This document shows, piece after piece, positions 1 through 8,716 of a stretch of DNA of 8,716 nucleotides. Location: positions 1-8,716 of IMG/VR virus record IMGVR_UViG_2579778956_000003; one strand, 5' to 3'. The first letter of the stretch is position 1. Every line of letters starts with the position of its first letter. The position numbers were made by a program, and so were the translations under genes. The stretch is from a virus (taxonomy: Duplodnaviria > Heunggongvirae > Uroviricota > Caudoviricetes). A model generated the notes under the pieces. That model saw only the letters and a program-made list of their open reading frames with translations, ran no database searches and was not told where the DNA came from.

Positions 1-1818
1 TTATCTTGCGTTTATTGATATATCAAAGAATGCGTTTCCTGTATTAAACATGTTTTGTTTTATATCGTCTGATGCTCCAGCTCTAAATATTCTCCTGAAA
101 TATATCCTTCCATCTGCCACATAAGGCTCTACGGCAAAAAGATTGGTATCTGATCTTATTGAGGTTGTAAGATTATTTGTTATTGAGCCAACAGCACTAC
201 CTGCTATTGTTGATAGGTAAGGAGGTAGTTGAATGTAAAATGTATCTCCTGAAGAATTATTAGTTATATTGCATGTTATAACTACACGTCCAATTACGGT
301 TTTTTGTAAAATATTATGCGTATATGACTGATTTGTATATGTACACGGTATATTTACTGTTGGCTTGTAGCTACCGCTTGCGATTGGATACAAATATGTA
401 GATTGCATATTTCCACCATAAACATAGTTGTTTAGCGGGCTTGCCGAATCTGTAAATGTGAAAAATCCATCATCTTCAATGTATGCATAATCACCTATTA
501 AGGGGCTAATAAAGGTATTCTCAGAACCAGATATCAGAAAAACCTTACCATATTTCAAGCCACAATCCTGATGAGATAGGTTCCTAGGTGATAAAAATGT
601 GTTGTTAAAACCAGAAATTACATAACCAATCCCTCCATTTGTAATACTGGCTGCTTGTGTTTTGTTTATTTTTTTCGGTGAGTCAGAATAGAATTGCACT
701 ACGTTATTACCACTACCGCTCATTTTAAGGCCGAATAACATATTACGAGTGGTTCTATCTGGTGATGACATTCCCCAGCAGTGGGCCTTTGATACTTGAT
801 TAGCATTTCCAGGCATATCAAGTCCAGTAGTATATCCTGAAACTATAACGTTAGAATAAAATGAATCTGACGTTTCATGTCTAATTCCTGCATAATCATG
901 AGAGTTATTTTGATCAAAAGGTGCAATGATTGAAATGTTTGATATGTTCCATCCATACCCCTTAACAATCTTAATTCCTCCCCTTCTCATGTTGAATGTT
1001 CTTAATCTTGATATGATCGGATCCACTCCATCAGTACCAAGAATACCAACAGCATCTATTACAGAGTCAGGGGCAATATATAGACCATCAATATGAACTC
1101 TATCACCTGTATCTATTGCCGTTATTCCATCATTGTAAGGATCCCTCCACGCGTCGTCTTTTACCTCAATAACAACATCATCTGAAAAGTCACGGGGTTT
1201 TATTTCTCCGAGATGCGTGACTCGTGAACCTGATTTATGAATAAGTCTTTCAGTTATACAACTTTTACCTACAAAAATAATATCTCTTTTGTTATCAGCA
1301 GACCAGTCAAGAGCAGTTTGATTTGCTATTGTATCATCAGTTACACCATCACATTTCGCACCAAAATATTTATTTGTAGGAATGTCTTTTAGAATGTCGC
1401 CAACGCTTCTAACAATGAATGGAGCTGATCCAGTCATGACTATGTCAGCACCAGAACTACTCTCAAGCTGTTGCCTTAACTGATCTGGGTCGTATTTTGC
1501 AATGTCAGGGAAGTAGAACTGCTGCGATCCATAGGCGTCGTAAACAGCCATGCTGTAATTCTGCACAGTAACGAACTTTGATATCTGCCCGTTGTAAACA
1601 GGATACCCACCCGCGTTAATAACTATCGGCTGAGCAGTTGGAATCAGATCTCCAGTTTCACTTTCAATATAAACAGGGATTTGATTCGCTGGGATTGTAG
1701 GATCGGTATCTGGTAGCCCAAGATAGATTTTACCGTTGGCATTTGCTTTAAATGAGCGTGCCAGCGTGAAAAGCTGCGCAGGCATCCCTACCACTAAGTT
1801 TGCGGTGATATCTGACAT
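1..1818 (-). CDS. Tailspike protein (P22 gp9-like N-terminal head-binding domain, divergent receptor-binding domain); 605 aa, stop codon at 1..3
   Basis: The N-terminus [34 protein letters not shown]...[10 protein letters not shown]...[10 protein letters not shown]...KYDPDQ closely matches the P22 tailspike head-binding domain as I recall it. The first Met of the tracked ORF (1866) adds 16 residues with no RBS; the ATG at 1818 is preceded by GGAG with a 7 nt spacer. The rest is Gly/Asn/Ser/Thr-rich as expected for a beta-helix receptor-binding domain. Confidence 0.9.
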
Positions 1819-1843
1819 TTCATTACTCCAAACGAATGATATG

Positions 1844-1866
1844 ATGCAACCATGATGTGATTGCAT
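1844..1866. promoter_or_regulatory. Near-perfect inverted repeat ATGCAACCA-N5-TGATTGCAT in the divergent tailspike/mnt intergenic region; candidate Mnt operator
   Basis: The two 9 bp arms match at 8 of 9 positions around a 5 bp spacer. It sits 26-48 bp upstream of the tailspike ATG and about 75 bp upstream of the mnt ATG. Ribbon-helix-helix repressors such as Mnt bind dyad operators of this size. Promoter hexamers could not be assigned with confidence. Confidence 0.35.
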
Positions 1867-1939
1867 ACCGAAATGGTACTATTGAGTATTTATCCAGTAG
1901 GTTACGATGCCATTCCACCCAACTGGTGAGGCATCAAGG

Positions 1940-2200
1940 ATGTACAGCAAATACGACGAGGCGCAGTTTCACTTGAGACTTCCGCATGAACTCCACGAGA
2001 AAATTAAACAGCGCGCGAAGATGAATAACAGGTCGCTGAACTCTGAGATAATTGCAGCGATTGAAGAATCATTGACTAAACAAAGCTCTGCATCAGTTTA
2101 CATTGACGATGCAGAGCGTATGGCAGAACAACAATCTGATATGGTTAAGAAAATTGTCTTTGATACGCTCAAGGAGCTATATAAAAAAGACAGCAACTAA
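1940..2200 (+). CDS. mnt: Mnt-like ribbon-helix-helix repressor (Arc/Mnt family), 86 aa
   Basis: The protein aligns over its whole length with P22 Mnt as I recall it: FHLRLPHELHEKIKQRAKMNNRSLNSEII versus FNFRMPMEVREKLKFRAEANGRSMNSELL, and C-terminal DDAERMAEQQSDMVKKIVFDTLKELYKK versus NDAERLADEQSELVKKMVFDTLKDLYKK. The start at 1940 is chosen because GGTGAGG lies 8 nt upstream; the tracked ATG at 1907 would add an 11-residue extension ahead of the DNA-binding strand. Confidence 0.85.
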   Translation: MYSKYDEAQFHLRLPHELHEKIKQRAKMNNRSLNSEIIAAIEESLTKQSSASVYIDDAERMAEQQSDMVKKIVFDTLKELYKKDSN

Positions 2201-2220
2201 CCATCCATTACGGAGGATTT

Positions 2221-2298
2221 ATGCAAAGAGATATGATGAATATTGCATTCTACATATTTGGTTTTTGCACTTTCCTGGTATTTGCAAAGCTATTCTGA
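2221..2298 (+). CDS. Hypothetical 25 aa hydrophobic peptide (MQRDMMNIAFYIFGFCTFLVFAKLF) just downstream of mnt
   Basis: GGAGG at 2212..2216 lies 4 nt upstream of the ATG at 2221. The product is a single predicted transmembrane helix. It is below the ORF-track length cut-off and its last codons overlap the convergent 3' end of the gp16-like gene. Confidence 0.25.
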   Translation: MQRDMMNIAFYIFGFCTFLVFAKLF

Positions 2299-4683
2299 CA
2301 ACGCATCAGACTTAGCCCCCTGCGTCAGAGCGTTAATTGTATTTTGTGCCTGCTGCATTGCTTTCTCAAAGGCTGTTGATCCGCGTGGGGTGTTTGCCAT
2401 TCGGAGCATTGCATTTCTGAATGGCTCGCTCTCATAGGCGCGAGTAAGAAGTCCGTAGCTTACTGCTGCGCCAGTTGTCGCCGGGTTCATTGCCGTCCCA
2501 TACCCAATAATGAACGGGATAGTTTGCTGTCCTGTGGGTGTTGTTACTGCCGCTTTTGCAGCCTGCTGCGTGGATTGCAGGTAGTTTTTCAATCCTTTCA
2601 GATAAGCAGCGTCCTGCCCCTTAAATGTGATGCCAGTCTGGTTTTGCAGGATGTTAAGCTGCCGAAGGAACTGGTCAGGGGATCCGCCAGATTTCTCCAT
2701 CGCCTTTCCAATGATGCCATTGCGCATTTGCGCCCTGCCAACACGACCAACTGAGTTATACAGCGTCTTAATTTCAGATTTGTTCTTGCTGAATAGCATG
2801 TTGTTGACAACTTCCGGCGTCAGATCGCCTTTCATGAGAACATTCTTCAGCCTGGTATTCTTTAGTTTCTCTGCTTCGTCAGCGTAGACGGCATTGGCCT
2901 GCTGATATTTACGGAGAGTATCGTTGCCAAGATTCTGACCAATGGCACCATTGATATCGTCGGTCATTGCCTTGTAAACGCGCTGAATGGCGGCATCGGA
3001 ACGGTTTGGTAACACTGGTCGCTCACCCTTCACGTCCATTCTGAACTGGCTGCGCAGGTCACTTAATTGCTTCAAATCCAGATTTACCGGACCATCAGGG
3101 CCAGCATTGCGAACAAGCTCATCACGATATGACTGAAGTTTTGAAATAGTCTCGTTATCAGCAACCTTACCAAGCTTCTGCAGGTTAGATATTTCTGTAT
3201 CAATCTGCTGAATTGCTCGCACAGGCTGAATGTTTACTCCAGCCATAGCATTCTGAACCTGCTCCAGTCGATTACCGGCGGCACGACGAATTCCTGATGT
3301 TTTCGCCTTAAGGCTGTCAATAACAACCGCTGGATCATACTCACCGAATTTATCGGCAAATCTCTGCACCAACTGGCTTCTCGCTTCCTGTTGCGTTGCT
3401 CTCATTCCGCTTGTGCCAGCCAGGGGGATATTTTCTGCTGTAGTCTGCGCCATTTTCCCGACGCGGGAAGTAGGCTGTAACAGGTCTGTGGTGTGCAGAG
3501 GAACTCCTTCACGCTCTGCAAACCTGATAGCCTGTTGAGCTTCTGGTGCTATCGAACCACGAACACCACGATAAGCAGCACCTAATCCACGTCCGGCAGC
3601 GTTAATAGCACCGCCAGCCAGCACACCAACGCCTAAATCGGTGGCGAGTGCTTCCGCATCATCTTTCGCACTGTTTGCAGCAAGTGATCCAACTGCGTTT
3701 TCTGCTAGAAGGCGAGTTGCCCCCTGAGCAATTCGACCAGCAAGTGTTGGTGCCTGTGTTGCCGCTCTCTCAACGCCAGCAGGAGTGAGGTAAGGCAATG
3801 CTTCGGCAAATACCCTTCCCTCTGTCGTTTGTGGAGTCAGCGCGCCTTGCTGAAGGCCAAAGTCCTGCTCTAATCCCTGCGTTGTTACTCGTGGTGCTGG
3901 TTGATATGTACCATCGCCAATGCCGAGTTTACCGCCAGCCCAAGCCGCCGCGCTTGTTACAGCATCAGTGAGTTCAGCAGGTATGTTCGCTACGTTGATT
4001 CCTGCCTGTAGTAAGCCGCGCCCGGTTTCAGCAAGTCCATTACCAAGGTCAGACATTATTCCGCCTTGCTGCTGAACAGGTTTCGGTGCGACAGAACTTA
4101 CGGGTTGAGGTGGCTGCTGACTGGCTGCCTGCTGCTCAATCTGAGCAAATGGATTATTTGGGTCTGACTGCACGCCTGATGCCGATACTTGTTCGGATGA
4201 CTGTGCTTCCAGTTGTGCAAACGGGTTGTTAGGGTCTTGCTGAGGATGTACCTTTGCAGAGGTGGCGCGCTGTTCGACTGTTGAGTCTGTCACCGGGTCA
4301 CCCGCCCATTGAGCAAAGCGATCATCAACGTAACCGCGGCCTTCAGGTCCTGGCGTATATTCACCACGCTTTGCCTTCATAACGTTGCCGGGACCGTCGT
4401 GATAAGCCTGAAGAGCGTCACGCCAGTTACCAAACTGCTGGTACATCTTTGCCAGATAGCGCGCGCCAGCGTCAGCCTGATATTCGGGGTTTTGCATTTG
4501 CTCATCGGTATAACCCATATCACGCCATGTCCCAGGCATGACCTGAGTCAATCCTACAGCCCCGGCGGAGCTTACTGCGGCAGGGTTGTAAGAAGACTCC
4601 TTGGCACCCAGTGCAGTCATCAACCCTTCTGGCACACCGTAACGTGCGCCAGCCTGCTCTAACAAATCACGGTAATTAGCCAT
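2290..4683 (-). CDS. DNA-ejection / internal virion protein (P22 gp16 position) with N-terminal lytic transglycosylase (SLT) domain, 797 aa
   Basis: The N-terminal ~110 residues carry SLT family hallmarks: GAKESSYNPAAVSSAGAVGLTQVMPGTW ... AGARYLAKMY ... ALQAYHDGPGN. It is the last of three tightly packed genes between gene 10 and the tailspike, and its ATG directly abuts the upstream TAA. A Gln/Ala/Gly-rich linker contains a duplicated DPNNPFAQ(L/I)E motif. Confidence 0.85.
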   Translation of the reverse strand: MANYRDLLEQAGARYGVPEGLMTALGAKESSYNPAAVSSAGAVGLTQVMPGTWRDMGYTDEQMQNPEYQADAGARYLAKMYQQFGNWRDALQAYHDGPGNVMKAKRGEYTPGPEGRGYVDDRFAQWAGDPVTDSTVEQRATSAKVHPQQDPNNPFAQLEAQSSEQVSASGVQSDPNNPFAQIEQQAASQQPPQPVSSVAPKPVQQQGGIMSDLGNGLAETGRGLLQAGINVANIPAELTDAVTSAAAWAGGKLGIGDGTYQPAPRVTTQGLEQDFGLQQGALTPQTTEGRVFAEALPYLTPAGVERAATQAPTLAGRIAQGATRLLAENAVGSLAANSAKDDAEALATDLGVGVLAGGAINAAGRGLGAAYRGVRGSIAPEAQQAIRFAEREGVPLHTTDLLQPTSRVGKMAQTTAENIPLAGTSGMRATQQEARSQLVQRFADKFGEYDPAVVIDSLKAKTSGIRRAAGNRLEQVQNAMAGVNIQPVRAIQQIDTEISNLQKLGKVADNETISKLQSYRDELVRNAGPDGPVNLDLKQLSDLRSQFRMDVKGERPVLPNRSDAAIQRVYKAMTDDINGAIGQNLGNDTLRKYQQANAVYADEAEKLKNTRLKNVLMKGDLTPEVVNNMLFSKNKSEIKTLYNSVGRVGRAQMRNGIIGKAMEKSGGSPDQFLRQLNILQNQTGITFKGQDAAYLKGLKNYLQSTQQAAKAAVTTPTGQQTIPFIIGYGTAMNPATTGAAVSYGLLTRAYESEPFRNAMLRMANTPRGSTAFEKAMQQAQNTINALTQGAKSDALSE
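4135..4236 (-). repeat. Duplicated 10-residue motif DPNNPFAQ(L/I)E inside the gp16-like protein (nt 4207..4236 and 4135..4164)
   Basis: Both copies translate to the same peptide but use different synonymous codons (gaccctaacaacccgtttgcacaactggaa versus gacccaaataatccatttgctcagattgag), which argues for conservation at the protein level. Confidence 0.6.
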
Positions 4684-6015
4684 TTACTGCCCCAAAGATG
4701 GAAGATATCCGTAGCGATTAATGAAGTCGATTGACAGCTCGGGGTGCTGCTTCAGGTAATCTATAGAAGCCTGAGGCGCTTCCACTCGCTTGATACCGTT
4801 TTGCTGAACGTACTTACCAACCGCCTCATTACGCTTCTGGTTGAGCGTGTTCAGGATGACGCCAGCGTTGCGACGAAAGGACTCCTCGCTCTGCGAGTTC
4901 TGCAGCGAACCAACAGCCTGGTCGAGCTTTTTGCCCTCGGCATCAGAAAGTGCGCCCATGCCTCGCATGGCCTGAACCGCTGTCAGGTATGCTTGTGATT
5001 TAAAGGTATCAAGTCGTGCCTGAGTGTCTGCAGCCTGTGAGCCTGGAACGTTGGGGATTACTCCACGTAAGCCTGTAATGCTCTTAAGTGAAGGAGAACT
5101 AACGATATCGTTCAGAGTGAACATGCTGGTTGTGAGGGTGTTGATGCCGTCTTTGTAGCCATCATTTAGCGCTTGCTGCTTCTGCTGCAACTGCTGGTTG
5201 TTGGCTGCTATGCGGCTCTGTATTTCCTGGCGCTTCAGGTCGTTAGTTTCTGCTGATAGCATCCGGTCAAGGCGCTTATTTTCGTTGTTAATGCGGTTTG
5301 TTTCTGCGTCCAGATTAATGCGCTGCTGACCTAAATTCGCCTGGATATCTTGCCCGCGCATTGTGATTGCCTGATTCCGAGCGGCGGTTTGCGAATCCAG
5401 GTCCTGACCGCGCATGGTAACCTGGCGGCCCTGCATTTTATCCTGTAGGTCAAAGTATTTTTCGGGTCCGAGACTGTTCATCCCCAGGTGATCGACAAAT
5501 TCGCCGAACTGCCGCGGGTTCTGTTGGTACATCTGAGCGACGTCCTGAGGATTAACGCCAACACGAGCTAACTCACCGGCGTTGTTTTGCAGCCATGATT
5601 GCATTGCTTCTGGAGACGATGACGCAAGGCGTGCGCCAGCCGCTAAGGTGCCGATAGAATTACGCTGGTCTTCATCAATGAATCCCATGCCTTTACGAAC
5701 AGATTCAATCTGGTCTGGATATTGAGTAGCCAACTGACGCAAAGCACCGCGATCACCAGACGCATAAGCATTAGCGTATGCCTGCTGAAATTCTTTCTGC
5801 CGCTGAGCCTGCTTTTCCTGCTGAAACACCCCCGCAATACCTGAAAGGCCTTGCAAAGCAGTCAGCCCAACATTGTTAGCGCCTGAACGCTCAATATCAT
5901 TGTTCTGCCTGATAAGCTGAAGCGTATTGCCGATGTCATTTACGCTCGGAGCGTTTGAGTTGACGCCGCCGATACCAGCCAATAATCCGCCATTTAATCC
6001 TTGCCAAGTAGCCAT
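4684..6015 (-). CDS. DNA-ejection protein (P22 gp20 position), 443 aa
   Basis: This is the middle of the three ejection-protein genes, with size close to P22 gp20 (about 470 aa as I recall). It is Gln/Asn/Ala-rich with coiled-coil-like segments, starts 6 nt after the gp7-like stop behind a GGGG RBS, and its stop TAA abuts the gp16-like ATG. Confidence 0.8.
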   Translation of the reverse strand: MATWQGLNGGLLAGIGGVNSNAPSVNDIGNTLQLIRQNNDIERSGANNVGLTALQGLSGIAGVFQQEKQAQRQKEFQQAYANAYASGDRGALRQLATQYPDQIESVRKGMGFIDEDQRNSIGTLAAGARLASSSPEAMQSWLQNNAGELARVGVNPQDVAQMYQQNPRQFGEFVDHLGMNSLGPEKYFDLQDKMQGRQVTMRGQDLDSQTAARNQAITMRGQDIQANLGQQRINLDAETNRINNENKRLDRMLSAETNDLKRQEIQSRIAANNQQLQQKQQALNDGYKDGINTLTTSMFTLNDIVSSPSLKSITGLRGVIPNVPGSQAADTQARLDTFKSQAYLTAVQAMRGMGALSDAEGKKLDQAVGSLQNSQSEESFRRNAGVILNTLNQKRNEAVGKYVQQNGIKRVEAPQASIDYLKQHPELSIDFINRYGYLPSLGQ

Positions 6016-6024
6016 GATTACCCC

Positions 6025-6717
6025 TTAAAACAACGAGCCAAGCAATCCGATACCAGCACCAATGCCAGCACCCCAAGGTGTTGATGTTCCCAAAAGGCTG
6101 GCAAGACCTGCACCGGCAATCGCACCAGACGTTCCGCCACTAATTGCTGTCTGAAGACTTGATGGTTTGTTGGCATTAGCAGCGGCAAGAGCTGCGCTTT
6201 GCTGTGCAATGCTGCTCATGTTGTTGGCGTACGTCTGCCCGGCGTTTGCCTGACCTTGCAGAGCACCAAGCCCAACGTTTGCCAGATTGTTGTAATTGCT
6301 CATCTGGTTTGATAACCAAGACTGACCGAGAGTCGGCGCGATCGTAGCCAGTTGATTGCTTGTGGCTGTCGAACCAAGTCCACCCGTCGCCTCCGCAGCA
6401 GCAAGACTCTGGTAACGCGCCTGACCTGCAAGGTCTTTATACTGCTGAGAGTTGTAATACTGATTAAGTGCCTGCCCCTGACCTTCTAAACTGGAAAGAT
6501 TCTGCAACTGGTTAACATACTGCTCCGCAAGAGGCGTGAACGGAGCAAGGTTTTTCATGATCGTCTGCCACTGCTGATTTTGCAGGTCTGCTGCATACTT
6601 CTGAGCTTCTGCGGCATACTTTGCGCTTTTATCAGAACTGCCACCTTTCCCACCCTTTTCAGGGCAATAAGGTTCCTCGCCGCGCAGTTTTCTGCCCAGC
6701 TTAAATGCATATAACAT
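6025..6717 (-). CDS. DNA-ejection protein (P22 gp7 position), 230 aa
   Basis: Length is almost identical to P22 gp7 (about 229 aa as I recall). The N-terminus MLYAFKLGRKLRGEEP is followed by low-complexity Gly/Ala/Gln/Ser-rich sequence. A GGGAGA RBS lies 5 nt upstream, and the start sits 2 nt after the stop of the upstream ORF. Confidence 0.8.
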   Translation of the reverse strand: MLYAFKLGRKLRGEEPYCPEKGGKGGSSDKSAKYAAEAQKYAADLQNQQWQTIMKNLAPFTPLAEQYVNQLQNLSSLEGQGQALNQYYNSQQYKDLAGQARYQSLAAAEATGGLGSTATSNQLATIAPTLGQSWLSNQMSNYNNLANVGLGALQGQANAGQTYANNMSSIAQQSAALAAANANKPSSLQTAISGGTSGAIAGAGLASLLGTSTPWGAGIGAGIGLLGSLF

Positions 6718-6719
6718 GG

Positions 6720-7091
6720 CTATCTCCCGTGATTCAGGAAGTCGATTAGTTCTTCGCGTGTGGCGCTGTAAAAAGTCACGTCATCCACGCCTTTGAAGTA
6801 TTTCTTGATGGTTCCTACTCGCTTAAGGCCAATCATTGCGCAGTACATCTGACCGTGGCGGAATTTGCGTGCAGCGAACGATGTGACGCACTGAACGGTG
6901 GTGTTAGTCAGAATGTATCGCCAGAACGCCAGCCCGATTTCCTTGCTGAATCCACGAATCTCTGGCAGGTACATGGCGTGGCAATCAAAGGTTAGCGGCT
7001 GAATCTCCTGATAGTAAACAATTCCGCCGAACTGCCCGTGCACGTTCACCTCAAAGTAACGGCATACAGTCCTGTTTTCAACACACACCAT
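6720..7091 (-). pseudogene. 3' remnant of the gene preceding gp7 (gene-14 position in P22), out of frame with the gp10-like ORF; alternatively a small independent ORF starting at GTG 7043 (107 aa)
   Basis: The reading frame ends 2 nt before the gp7-like ATG, with the gp7 RBS inside its last codons, as expected for the authentic 3' end of a late gene. Its 5' end overlaps the end of the gp10-like ORF in a different frame. A possible restart signal (GAGG, 5 nt spacer, GTG at 7043, overlapping the upstream TGA) exists but may be fortuitous. Confidence 0.35.
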
Positions 7092-8110
7092 TGCGGACCA
7101 TTGGCGCTTGAAGATGCGTCGTACACGAGAACATGGCGCGCAAGATGGATAATCAGCAACTCATGCGCATCAAATCGCAGAGACTCCATCACGCCATCAG
7201 CCAGTTCATCAGCAGTGTAGGAGCGTAGTATTTTCTCAATGCTCGCGCTGGCGATTGGTGATACCTGACCAGAGCCGATGATATACACAGACGGCGCACC
7301 TGTTGCCGGATTGCTGATGAACGCATACGAATCAGCGAACTGCGTTTTGCAGTAGGTTCCAGCGATACCTTTCTGCACCATTAACGATGGCTGGGCGACA
7401 TACAAAGCAGCACCAACGGTGGTTGCGCCAGTCAGGGAGAAATATTCAATCGTCGATGAACCAAAGCAGACGATAAAGTCTCGCCATGTACCTATGCCGA
7501 TGATGCCGTCAGGCTGCGATTCTGCACGATATTGTGCGCTGTAGCGGTCAGGGTGCGATTCGTCTTCAAGGTCAGTGATAAACCATGAATCAGTACCGTC
7601 TTTTGACCACGCATAACGCCCACGTAAGCGCGTAATGTCGCGAACTGAACCTAACTCATACTGCGTAAAACCGCTGTCTGCAGGCCAGTTTGATACGGTT
7701 TTAACCGTGCCATCATAGCGATACTCGACCAGTTGACCATTAACGCCTACAGCCTGAGATGTTCGACCATGCGCCATTGATACGCGGCCACTTCCGGCGA
7801 CGTCACCGACTTCGCTTTCGCCCTTATACAGCTTGCCACCACACACGCGATAAACAGCATTCTGCGCCATGTTGTACTCGACGCCTCGCGATACGCCGTT
7901 CACATCAGAACGTTTGGCAATGCCCGGGAATGAGCGAAGATATCCGCTGCTGTTCAGGATTTCTTTGGGTGTAGCCAACATATTCACTGGCAGATAGTCG
8001 ATATAGTCGGCGTTTCGAAAGTCTTTGCCGACACCTTTCATAAGCGGAAGTTGCTGAACCTTGAGGCTAAATGCGCGAAGATGGCTGCTGAAAATACCTC
8101 GCTTAAGCAA
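7046..8110 (-). pseudogene. Tail hub / packaged-DNA stabilisation protein (P22 gp10-like), lacking its C-terminal ~125 residues and probably its native start
   Basis: The region from LPLMKGVGKDFRNADYIDYLPVNMLATPKEILNSSGYLRSFPGI to QWCVLKTGLY matches my recollection of P22 gp10 residues ~9-345 at high identity. Similarity stops after TGLY, followed by AVTLR and a stop, whereas gp10 is about 472 aa. The tracked start is a TTG at 8110 with no RBS, the first ATG (8041) also lacks an RBS, and the 5' end overlaps a plus-strand gene. Confidence 0.6.
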
Positions 8111-8365
8111 TCTGAGAAGGAATTTAATGACTTTTGTCGTGAGGAGTTTAGCGAATGGGAAGATGATGTTACTGAAACCCCAGCCACCGATGCTTTCCTG
8201 GCTGAAGTACGGGCGCAGGGGGTAGAGATGTACGCAGATAACCTCGACAACGGAGCAGACGACGCAGAACGAGGTGGTTTTGATTATGCCGTTAAGTTTC
8301 TACGCAGTGAAGCGTCTAGTGTACGTTTGTTCGCCGACCAGCTTCGCAAAGGAGGCAACCAGTGA
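8081..8365 (+). CDS. Hypothetical acidic protein (about 94 aa from ATG 8081; start uncertain, possibly 5'-truncated)
   Basis: The ORF has roughly 22 Asp/Glu against 10 Lys/Arg. No convincing RBS precedes the ATG at 8081 or the TTG at 8051, while an internal ATG at 8228 has GGGGG 5 nt upstream. Its stop overlaps the GTG of the next ORF (GTGA), suggesting coupled translation. It is on the same strand as the downstream AlpA-like gene. Confidence 0.4.
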   Translation: MAAENTSLKQSEKEFNDFCREEFSEWEDDVTETPATDAFLAEVRAQGVEMYADNLDNGADDAERGGFDYAVKFLRSEASSVRLFADQLRKGGNQ

Positions 8366-8481
8366 GCAAGATTGACTATCAGGAACTGCGTGAGATAGCA
8401 AAGCACCAGAGACTTACAGAAGAATCAGCGAGCTACGCAAGGACTAACGCCTCACACTCGATGAGGCCTGTACATATCTGA
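8362..8481 (+). CDS. Hypothetical 39 aa protein (MSKIDYQELREIAKHQRLTEESASYARTNASHSMRPVHI), translationally coupled to the upstream ORF
   Basis: GGAGG at 8351..8355 lies 6 nt upstream of the GTG at 8362, which overlaps the upstream stop codon. The ORF is below the ORF-track length cut-off and ends just before a terminator-like hairpin. Confidence 0.3.
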   Translation: MSKIDYQELREIAKHQRLTEESASYARTNASHSMRPVHI

Positions 8482-8484
8482 TAG

Positions 8485-8510
8485 AGCCGCTATATGGCGG
8501 TTTCTTTTTT
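8485..8510 (+). terminator. Candidate intrinsic terminator (short GC stem AGCCGCT / GGCGGTT with ATAT loop, followed by a T-rich run TTTCTTTTTT)
   Basis: The hairpin and T-tract lie 4 nt after the stop of the 39-codon ORF and about 15 nt before the RBS of the AlpA-like gene. The stem is short and includes G-U pairs. Confidence 0.3.
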
Positions 8511-8524
8511 CCTGGAGAATTAAG

Positions 8525-8716
8525 ATGACCGATACCAGCCTGATTCCTGAGAAAGAAGTGATGAACAAGCTCGGTGTTTCATCACGTCAGACAATCTGGA
8601 ACTATACCAAACGGCACGGATTTCCGAAGCCAGTCAGAACCCACCCCAAATCATACCTTCGTGAAGCTGTTGAAGGGTGGATTCTTAACGGTGGCGTTAA
8701 TCAGAAATGCTCCTGA
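8525..8716 (+). CDS. AlpA-family phage regulatory protein / excisionase-like DNA-binding protein, 63 aa (complete; stop at 8714..8716)
   Basis: The sequence KEVMNKLGVSSRQTIWNYTKRHGFPKPVR...PKSYLREAVEGWI fits the AlpA/Xis-type helix-turn-helix signature (L-G-V/L-S-x-x-T-I/L ... FPKP ... W-x-x-x-E-V-x-x-W-I). GGAG lies 7 nt upstream of the ATG. Its orientation, opposite to the late genes and reading away from them, is what a prophage xis gene pointing toward int would show. Confidence 0.75.
   Translation: MTDTSLIPEKEVMNKLGVSSRQTIWNYTKRHGFPKPVRTHPKSYLREAVEGWILNGGVNQKCS

Follow-up and report, generated by a model that had tools for sequence, protein, structure and literature searches.

The DNA analysed here is an 8,716-nt stretch, referred to as a whole as the window, in which a minus-strand frame resembling gene 10 of phage P22 stops prematurely and gives way to a second frame that runs up to a gp7-like gene, raising the question of whether the break between the two arose by frameshift, by misassembly, by module exchange or by loss of DNA. 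A sequence-only reading had placed this break at 7030-7100 and had explained it by deletion of the rest of gene 10, the tail needle gene and part of gene 14. The break is real, and its junction maps within that range, to 7063-7065 on the minus strand.

All 8,716 bases of the window (8,716/8,716) are identical to a draft contig that we denote L005 (GCA_000511565.1, AYKE01000009.1; the window is L005 5968-14683 reversed), which carries an 11.5-kb remnant of a P22/Sf6/Sf101-like prophage between sbcB and dacD of an Escherichia/Shigella-type chromosome. The prophage is integrated in the 5' end of sbcB: the 13-bp att core CGTAATCGTGAAA, reported for Sf101 and phage 2851 (PMC4159516), is present twice in direct orientation, at L005 4582 (sbcB 5' end) and 16092, 11,510 bp apart. 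The element reads int, xis, a fragment of an early-left (ea) gene, the remnants of genes 10 and 14 (gp10' and 'gp14), gp7, gp20, gp16, mnt, tailspike and a gene for a 342-aa Acyl_transf_3 protein. As judged from sequence, int (392 aa) and xis (63 aa) are both apparently intact, and the remnant may still be excisable via int, xis and the att sites. Between int/xis and gene 10 we found no terminase, portal, scaffold, coat, gene 4, lysis, replication or repressor gene. The absence of these particle and lytic genes, compared with the intact Sf101, marks the element as a defective prophage, as do the known att site with its core repeats and the integrase gene.

All large ORFs of the window but three lie on the minus strand (ORF list), and Pfam matches of the minus-strand ORFs correspond to the right-hand end of a P22-like late operon. 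The gp7 homologue (6025..6717, minus strand, 230 aa; PF25688 positions 1-230/230, E = 1.8e-134) and the gp20 homologue (4684..6015, minus strand, 443 aa; PF16928) are intact ejection protein genes, equal in length to Sf101 orf11 and orf12, respectively. They are followed by a 797-aa gp16 homologue (2290..4683, minus strand; PF01464, PF26808) whose N-terminus carries an SLT lytic transglycosylase domain; its match to the 911-aa 'transglycosylase' of Sf101 is confined to approximately the first 200 codons, beyond which the two diverge. A Mnt/Arc-family repressor gene (1940..2200, plus strand; PF03869 and PF11423), 86 aa in the public call or 97 aa if started at ATG 1907 (window 1907-2200), stands alone between gp16 and the tailspike gene, with neither an arc nor an ant partner; Sf101 orf14 is a like-sized ORF on the same strand and in the same place (DNA match 85%), and an Rfam scan of the window returned no RNA family and no sar-like RNA near this gene. 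The tailspike gene (1..1818, minus strand, 605 aa; Pfam and phage-record comparison) combines a P22-type head-binding domain with a divergent receptor-binding part, residues 114-605 being ~52% identical to the best-matching phage records, AV101 and EcoIv28_Lewi. Beside the tailspike gene, just outside the window (L005 14719-15747), lies the 342-aa Acyl_transf_3 gene, which by its sequence probably encodes an O-antigen acetylase and is not oacB. The tailspike and acyltransferase pair occurs in only 4 of the 5,426 complete E. coli genomes, and in strain 401651 it resides within an apparently intact prophage beside an Arg-tRNA gene. At the opposite end of the window, xis (8525..8716, plus strand; ORF list and prophage homology) encodes an excisionase-like helix-turn-helix protein and is convergent with, and overlaps, the integrase gene that lies just beyond the window on the source contig. 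A scan of the window for promoters and terminators returned counts that did not differ from those in shuffled sequences; all that stood out was a terminator-like hairpin with a T-run behind it (8484..8513, plus strand; detected by consensus scan only), which separates the ea fragment from xis.

The gene 10 remnant occupies 7046..8058 on the minus strand (PF11134, alignments to Sf101) within the ORF 7046..8110, which terminates in VLKTGLYAVTLR and a stop codon. This ORF matches PF11134 (Phage_stabilise, P22 gp10, the tail-hub/DNA-stabilisation protein) with E = 2.5e-208 and 692.9 bits, the match being confined to profile positions 1-332 of 469, so that the protein is not a full-length gp10. Compared with the 472-aa gp10 of Sf101, it keeps native residues 4-334, the last one being Y334; residues 1-3 and 335-472 are missing relative to both Sf101 and Sf6. 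The frame does end in TGLYAVTLR and falls short of full length, as had been claimed, while the shortfall, put at ~125 codons, is 138 codons relative to Sf101. Beyond Y334 the frame reads five out-of-frame gene 14 codons (AVTLR) before a TGA at 7046-7048. At its other end the native start codon and ribosome-binding site are gone: the mechanically called ORF extends to a TTG at 8110 within unrelated DNA, and public gene calls begin at an internal ATG (8041), giving a 331-aa product.

The second minus-strand frame, 6720..7091, comprises 123 codons from an ATG, or 107 from the GTG at 7043 (preceded by GAGG) that is used in public calls, and its TAG stop is separated by 2 nt from the start codon of gp7 (ATG, 6717), which bears out the length and position first ascribed to it. 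It contains codons 38-151 and the stop of gene 14 (6720..7065, minus strand; PF11039, comparison with the sister contig L004), matching PF11039 (DUF2824, P22 gp14) with E = 1e-38 at profile positions 36-150 of 151 only, and it is identical at 114 of 114 positions to residues 38-151 of the L004 gp14 homologue. Residues 1-37 of the 151-aa protein are absent, so that it is not a full-length gp14 and would lack one quarter of its fold. The first nine codons of the 123-aa frame (MVCVENRTV) come from gene 10 sequence translated in a different frame, which makes the ATG at 7091 an accidental start; and since the public calls start at GTG 7043, an exact-sequence look-up of the 123-aa frame in these calls gave zero matches. 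With such E-values and one-sided profile coverage, both fragment matches lie far beyond chance. Taken together with the loss of the late promoter upstream of gp10', these truncations suggest that gp10' and 'gp14 are non-functional pseudogene remnants, of which no function would be expected.

These identities bear directly on whether a frameshift or sequencing error in an otherwise full-length gene 10 could account for the break, in which case the downstream frame should be the gp10 C-terminus. The sole point in favour of a frameshift is that the two frames overlap, at 7046-7091. The downstream frame, however, has no similarity to the gp10 C-terminus (best BLASTP E = 1.2), a difference that had been noticed from the start, and is instead 100% identical to gp14 residues 38-151; the frameshift is refuted on these two counts, and 1,170 bp are moreover missing relative to otherwise identical contigs. 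We regard its probability as negligible.

These contigs came from an exact look-up of the window's gp16 protein, which returned 16 contigs, 10 of which (L004-L013) were examined; an identical copy of this gp16 is also found in the apparently intact prophages L011 and L012. Three of the examined contigs (L004, L007 and L010) align with the reverse complement of the window in two blocks, 1-1654 at 100% identity on the gene 10 side and 1648-8716 at 99.986% on the gene 14 side, and all three hold, between the blocks, the 1,170 bp that the window lacks. This DNA comprises gene 10 codons 335-472, a complete 212-codon gp26 gene and gene 14 codons 1-37, exactly the losses that had been proposed. In L004 the gp10 C-terminus continues KTGLYDDVYRAIDF and ends in IRLE, and the 212-aa protein matches the P22 gp26 needle structures 4LIN, 2POH and 3C9I with E = 1.9e-88 to 4.6e-85. 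A needle gene is missing between gp10' and 'gp14, as previously noted, and none was found in the rest of the window or of the element as carried by L005. Thus neither of the two observations named beforehand as fatal to the deletion reading, a match of the second frame to the gp10 C-terminus or an intact needle gene at another place in the element, was made.

Comparison with phages gave the same picture. By BLAST against Sf6 genes 5-13, the window falls into two collinear pieces (window 5479-7075, corresponding to Sf6 genes 12-10, and 7060-8058, corresponding to Sf6 gene 8) that are separated by ~1.4 kb of Sf6 DNA, and a three-way alignment with Sf6 places the switch at ~7063-7070. Megablast of the window against 50,697 phage records matched 154, and in 96 of these a single place, joined from two pieces across the 10-26-14 stretch, accounts for 80% or more of the query. 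At the top are Gally, Sf101, HF4s and Sf6 with 95.6-96.2% identity, and every phage record listed shows the two-piece match, with a tail-needle gene among the annotated features beneath it. A naturally needle-less architecture, or a mosaic exchange of modules in which nothing was deleted, would explain the absence of the needle gene and nothing further. Against it, both neighbouring genes are cut at the junction, the flanks are identical to contigs that carry the missing genes, the annotations of Sf6, Sf101, IME10, HK620 and Gally (5/5) all have genes 10, 26 and 14 in this order, and the 96 two-piece matches span this same block. Such an architecture is hardly conceivable here.

The three-way alignment with L004, the alignment with Sf6 and the BLAST offsets together resolve the junction to 7063-7065, where the parental sequences share three exact nucleotides, which read ATG in the coding direction and CAT on the plus strand and are part of an imperfect 7-mer (7063-7069) whose gene 10 copy is CTGTATG and whose gene 14 copy is CTGAATG (6/7). 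The junction itself joins AACAGGACTGTATG to CCGTTACTTTG; on the gene 10 parent side GGACTGTATG is followed by ACGATG, and on the gene 14 parent side AACCTGAATG is followed by CCGTTAC. The site has no repeat and no IS.

Could the contig simply misjoin gene 10 to gene 14, the real genome having a full 10-26-14 block? The junction is restricted to one contig, from a single draft assembly: its 24-mer has 0 occurrences in species-representative genomes (n = 185,579), in IMG/VR and in JGI metagenomes, this contig is the only one on which a gp10' product of exactly these 331 aa is recorded, and no complete E. coli genome (n = 5,426) has 80% or more of window 6500-8716, an interval that includes both this junction and a second one (see below); the nearest flanking DNA is 99.8% identical. 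However, the three exact shared bases (6/7) are far below assembler overlap or k-mer length and should not suffice to create an assembler join, so the junction would have to have been present in the reads. The lack of a repeat or IS at the site, the occurrence of comparable, real-looking deletions in sister strains (see below) and the listing of the contig for two samples also speak against an artefact, which we consider very unlikely.

The second junction, a larger deletion at 8057-8058 that the sequence-only reading of 7030-7100 had missed, has a 2-nt overlap (AA) and emerges from alignments to phages and to E. coli 730V1. Here gene 10 lacks ATGCCGAT and, from its codon 4, abuts an early-left 'ea' gene that is interrupted in its middle. 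Homology to phage records ends at window 8058, and from 8057 on the window matches at 99.7% the int-proximal end of sbcB-integrated P22-like prophages such as that of E. coli 730V1, in which the 3' part of a 160-aa early-left gene is followed by an excisionase-like gene and the integrase gene. The ea fragment (8059..8365, plus strand) is the 3' part of this hypothetical gene (homologue of 160 aa, WP_086186016.1, E. coli 730V1) and leaves ORFs of 94 aa (ATG 8081) or 104 aa (TTG 8051). Relative to Sf101 (38,742 bp), the loss amounts to ~26 kb, roughly two thirds of the genome, and extends from Sf101 position 19,828 across the origin to 6,985; it takes in the recombination, immunity, replication, nin, Q, lysis, terminase, portal, scaffold, coat and gene 4 regions, together with the late promoter and the gene 10 start codon. 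The 28-mer across this junction has 0 occurrences in species-representative genomes, and the junction is common to L004, L005, L006, L007, L009 and L010 at 100% identity. As six contigs share it and only L005 has the junction at 7063-7065, the large deletion predates the one of 1,170 bp.

This order also determines what the loss of the needle meant. The element does lack a functional tail plug, as had been pointed out, and yet this has no consequence, because the ~26-kb deletion, including gene 4 and the head genes, had already taken the head, packaging, lysis, replication and immunity genes; going by gene content, the element would have been unable to make particles even before the 1,170-bp deletion. 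We consider it very probable that a real and recent deletion of 1,170 bp, specific to this strain, left the frame break as its scar in a defective P22/Sf6/Sf101-like prophage. The ~26-kb deletion had first taken gene 4, the gene 10 start and the late promoter. Later, codon 334 of gene 10 became fused to codon 38 of gene 14, which left a gp10 fragment that ends in five foreign codons and a C-terminal gp14 fragment behind accidental start codons; as the mechanism we propose illegitimate recombination or replication slippage between the two similar 7-mers, CTGTATG and CTGAATG. The three exact shared bases (6/7), a short match, suggest that it was microhomology-mediated. The 1,170-bp loss would most simply represent neutral deletional decay of prophage DNA that was already dead, and a deletional bias is a general expectation in dead prophages.

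The sister contigs show that this deletion has counterparts. L006 lacks the DNA corresponding to L004 6611-8844 and L009 that corresponding to L004 5543-8844, each deletion having a 2-nt TA microhomology and each creating an in-frame gp10::gp20 fusion (763 aa in L006), so that three distinct deletions (1,170, 2,234 and 3,302 bp) fall inside one 3.4-kb stretch from gene 10 to gene 20. The deleted contigs are 99.889-100% identical over the aligned blocks, with 4-15 mismatches in 13.5-14.8 kb downstream, and all of them retain gp16, mnt, tailspike, acyltransferase, int and xis. The L006 and L009 deletions end at an identical right endpoint in gene 20 (GGTA joined to TTGCGGGGG; 8846/8845) and could be nested events or reflect a local hot spot. 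Another, related lineage of remnants, represented by L008 and L013, has a different large-deletion junction (L008 5096-5456) and a full-length, 472-aa gene 10; it keeps the early genes DUF2737, DUF7739 and DUF551, and the 5' two-thirds of its gene 10 are only 93% identical to the window, the remainder being 99.7% identical.

The clustering raises the possibility that the 1,170-bp deletion was selected, for example against a harmful tail-plug or needle product read through from int, in a remnant kept for its acyltransferase and tailspike. In keeping with this, three different deletions struck one 3.4-kb stretch among near-identical contigs, the same genes were kept in all deleted contigs, and int lies upstream of gp10' on the same strand; since no convincing minus-strand terminator was found between them, low-level read-through into gp10' and 'gp14 is possible. 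The gp10' start codon and ribosome-binding site are lost, however, deletional bias alone leads one to expect such losses, and among the contigs listed the gene 10 to gene 20 stretch is undeleted in most remnants. Selection of the 1,170-bp deletion is therefore unlikely, although the two other sister-strain deletions in this stretch could reflect selection or a local hot spot. A broader version, in which the element is a domesticated and excisable remnant, kept for the O-antigen acyltransferase and/or the tailspike, whose repeated deletions result from selection or from a site-specific hot spot, appears quite improbable to us.

Among described phages, Sf101 (KJ832078; Jakhetia et al. 2014, PMC4159516) comes closest by sequence comparison, sharing the sbcB site and the 13-bp att core, an int and xis that are 98.8-98.9% identical, genes 10 to 20 at 94.6-97.8% identity, and the gene order of the element and its sisters (10, 212-aa needle, 14, 7, 20, an SLT-containing gp16, an mnt-like gene, tailspike and acyltransferase). 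Sf101 is an intact 38.7-kb phage, whereas the element lacks ~26-27 kb and differs from it in the C-terminal part of gp16, in the receptor-binding domain of the tailspike and in its acyltransferase, which is a 342-aa protein and not OacB. We considered whether the element is Sf101 itself carrying oacB and rejected this, as the receptor-binding part of the tailspike and the acyltransferase mismatch Sf101. The 10-26-14 block of Sf6 and P22 (Lederbergvirus) likewise shares the gp10, gp14, gp7 and gp20 families with the window, and Sf6 DNA is 93.8-95.6% identical to the window on both sides of the 7063-7065 junction; in Sf6, however, the needle is a knobbed protein of 282 aa and genes 10 and 14 are complete, whereas in the window the needle is gone and both neighbours are truncated. 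The element also resembles cryptic prophages that decay by deletion, in that integrase, excisionase and att sites are kept and morphogenesis genes are lost, with near-identical strains bearing nested strain-specific deletions and an acyltransferase cargo by attR that is kept in all. It is an ordinary defective prophage with a secondary deletion, and nothing new as a kind.

For annotation, these results mean that ORFs 7046-8110 and 6720-7091 should be entered as pseudogene fragments of gene 10 and gene 14, and not as proteins, and that the element should be labelled a prophage remnant that is presumably non-inducible. Beyond annotation the finding is of little importance, with possible interest for studies of serotype-converting prophage remnants at the sbcB site. 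The sister set provides a small, clean case of stepwise prophage decay, in which a large deletion was followed by separate microhomology deletions of 1-3 kb.
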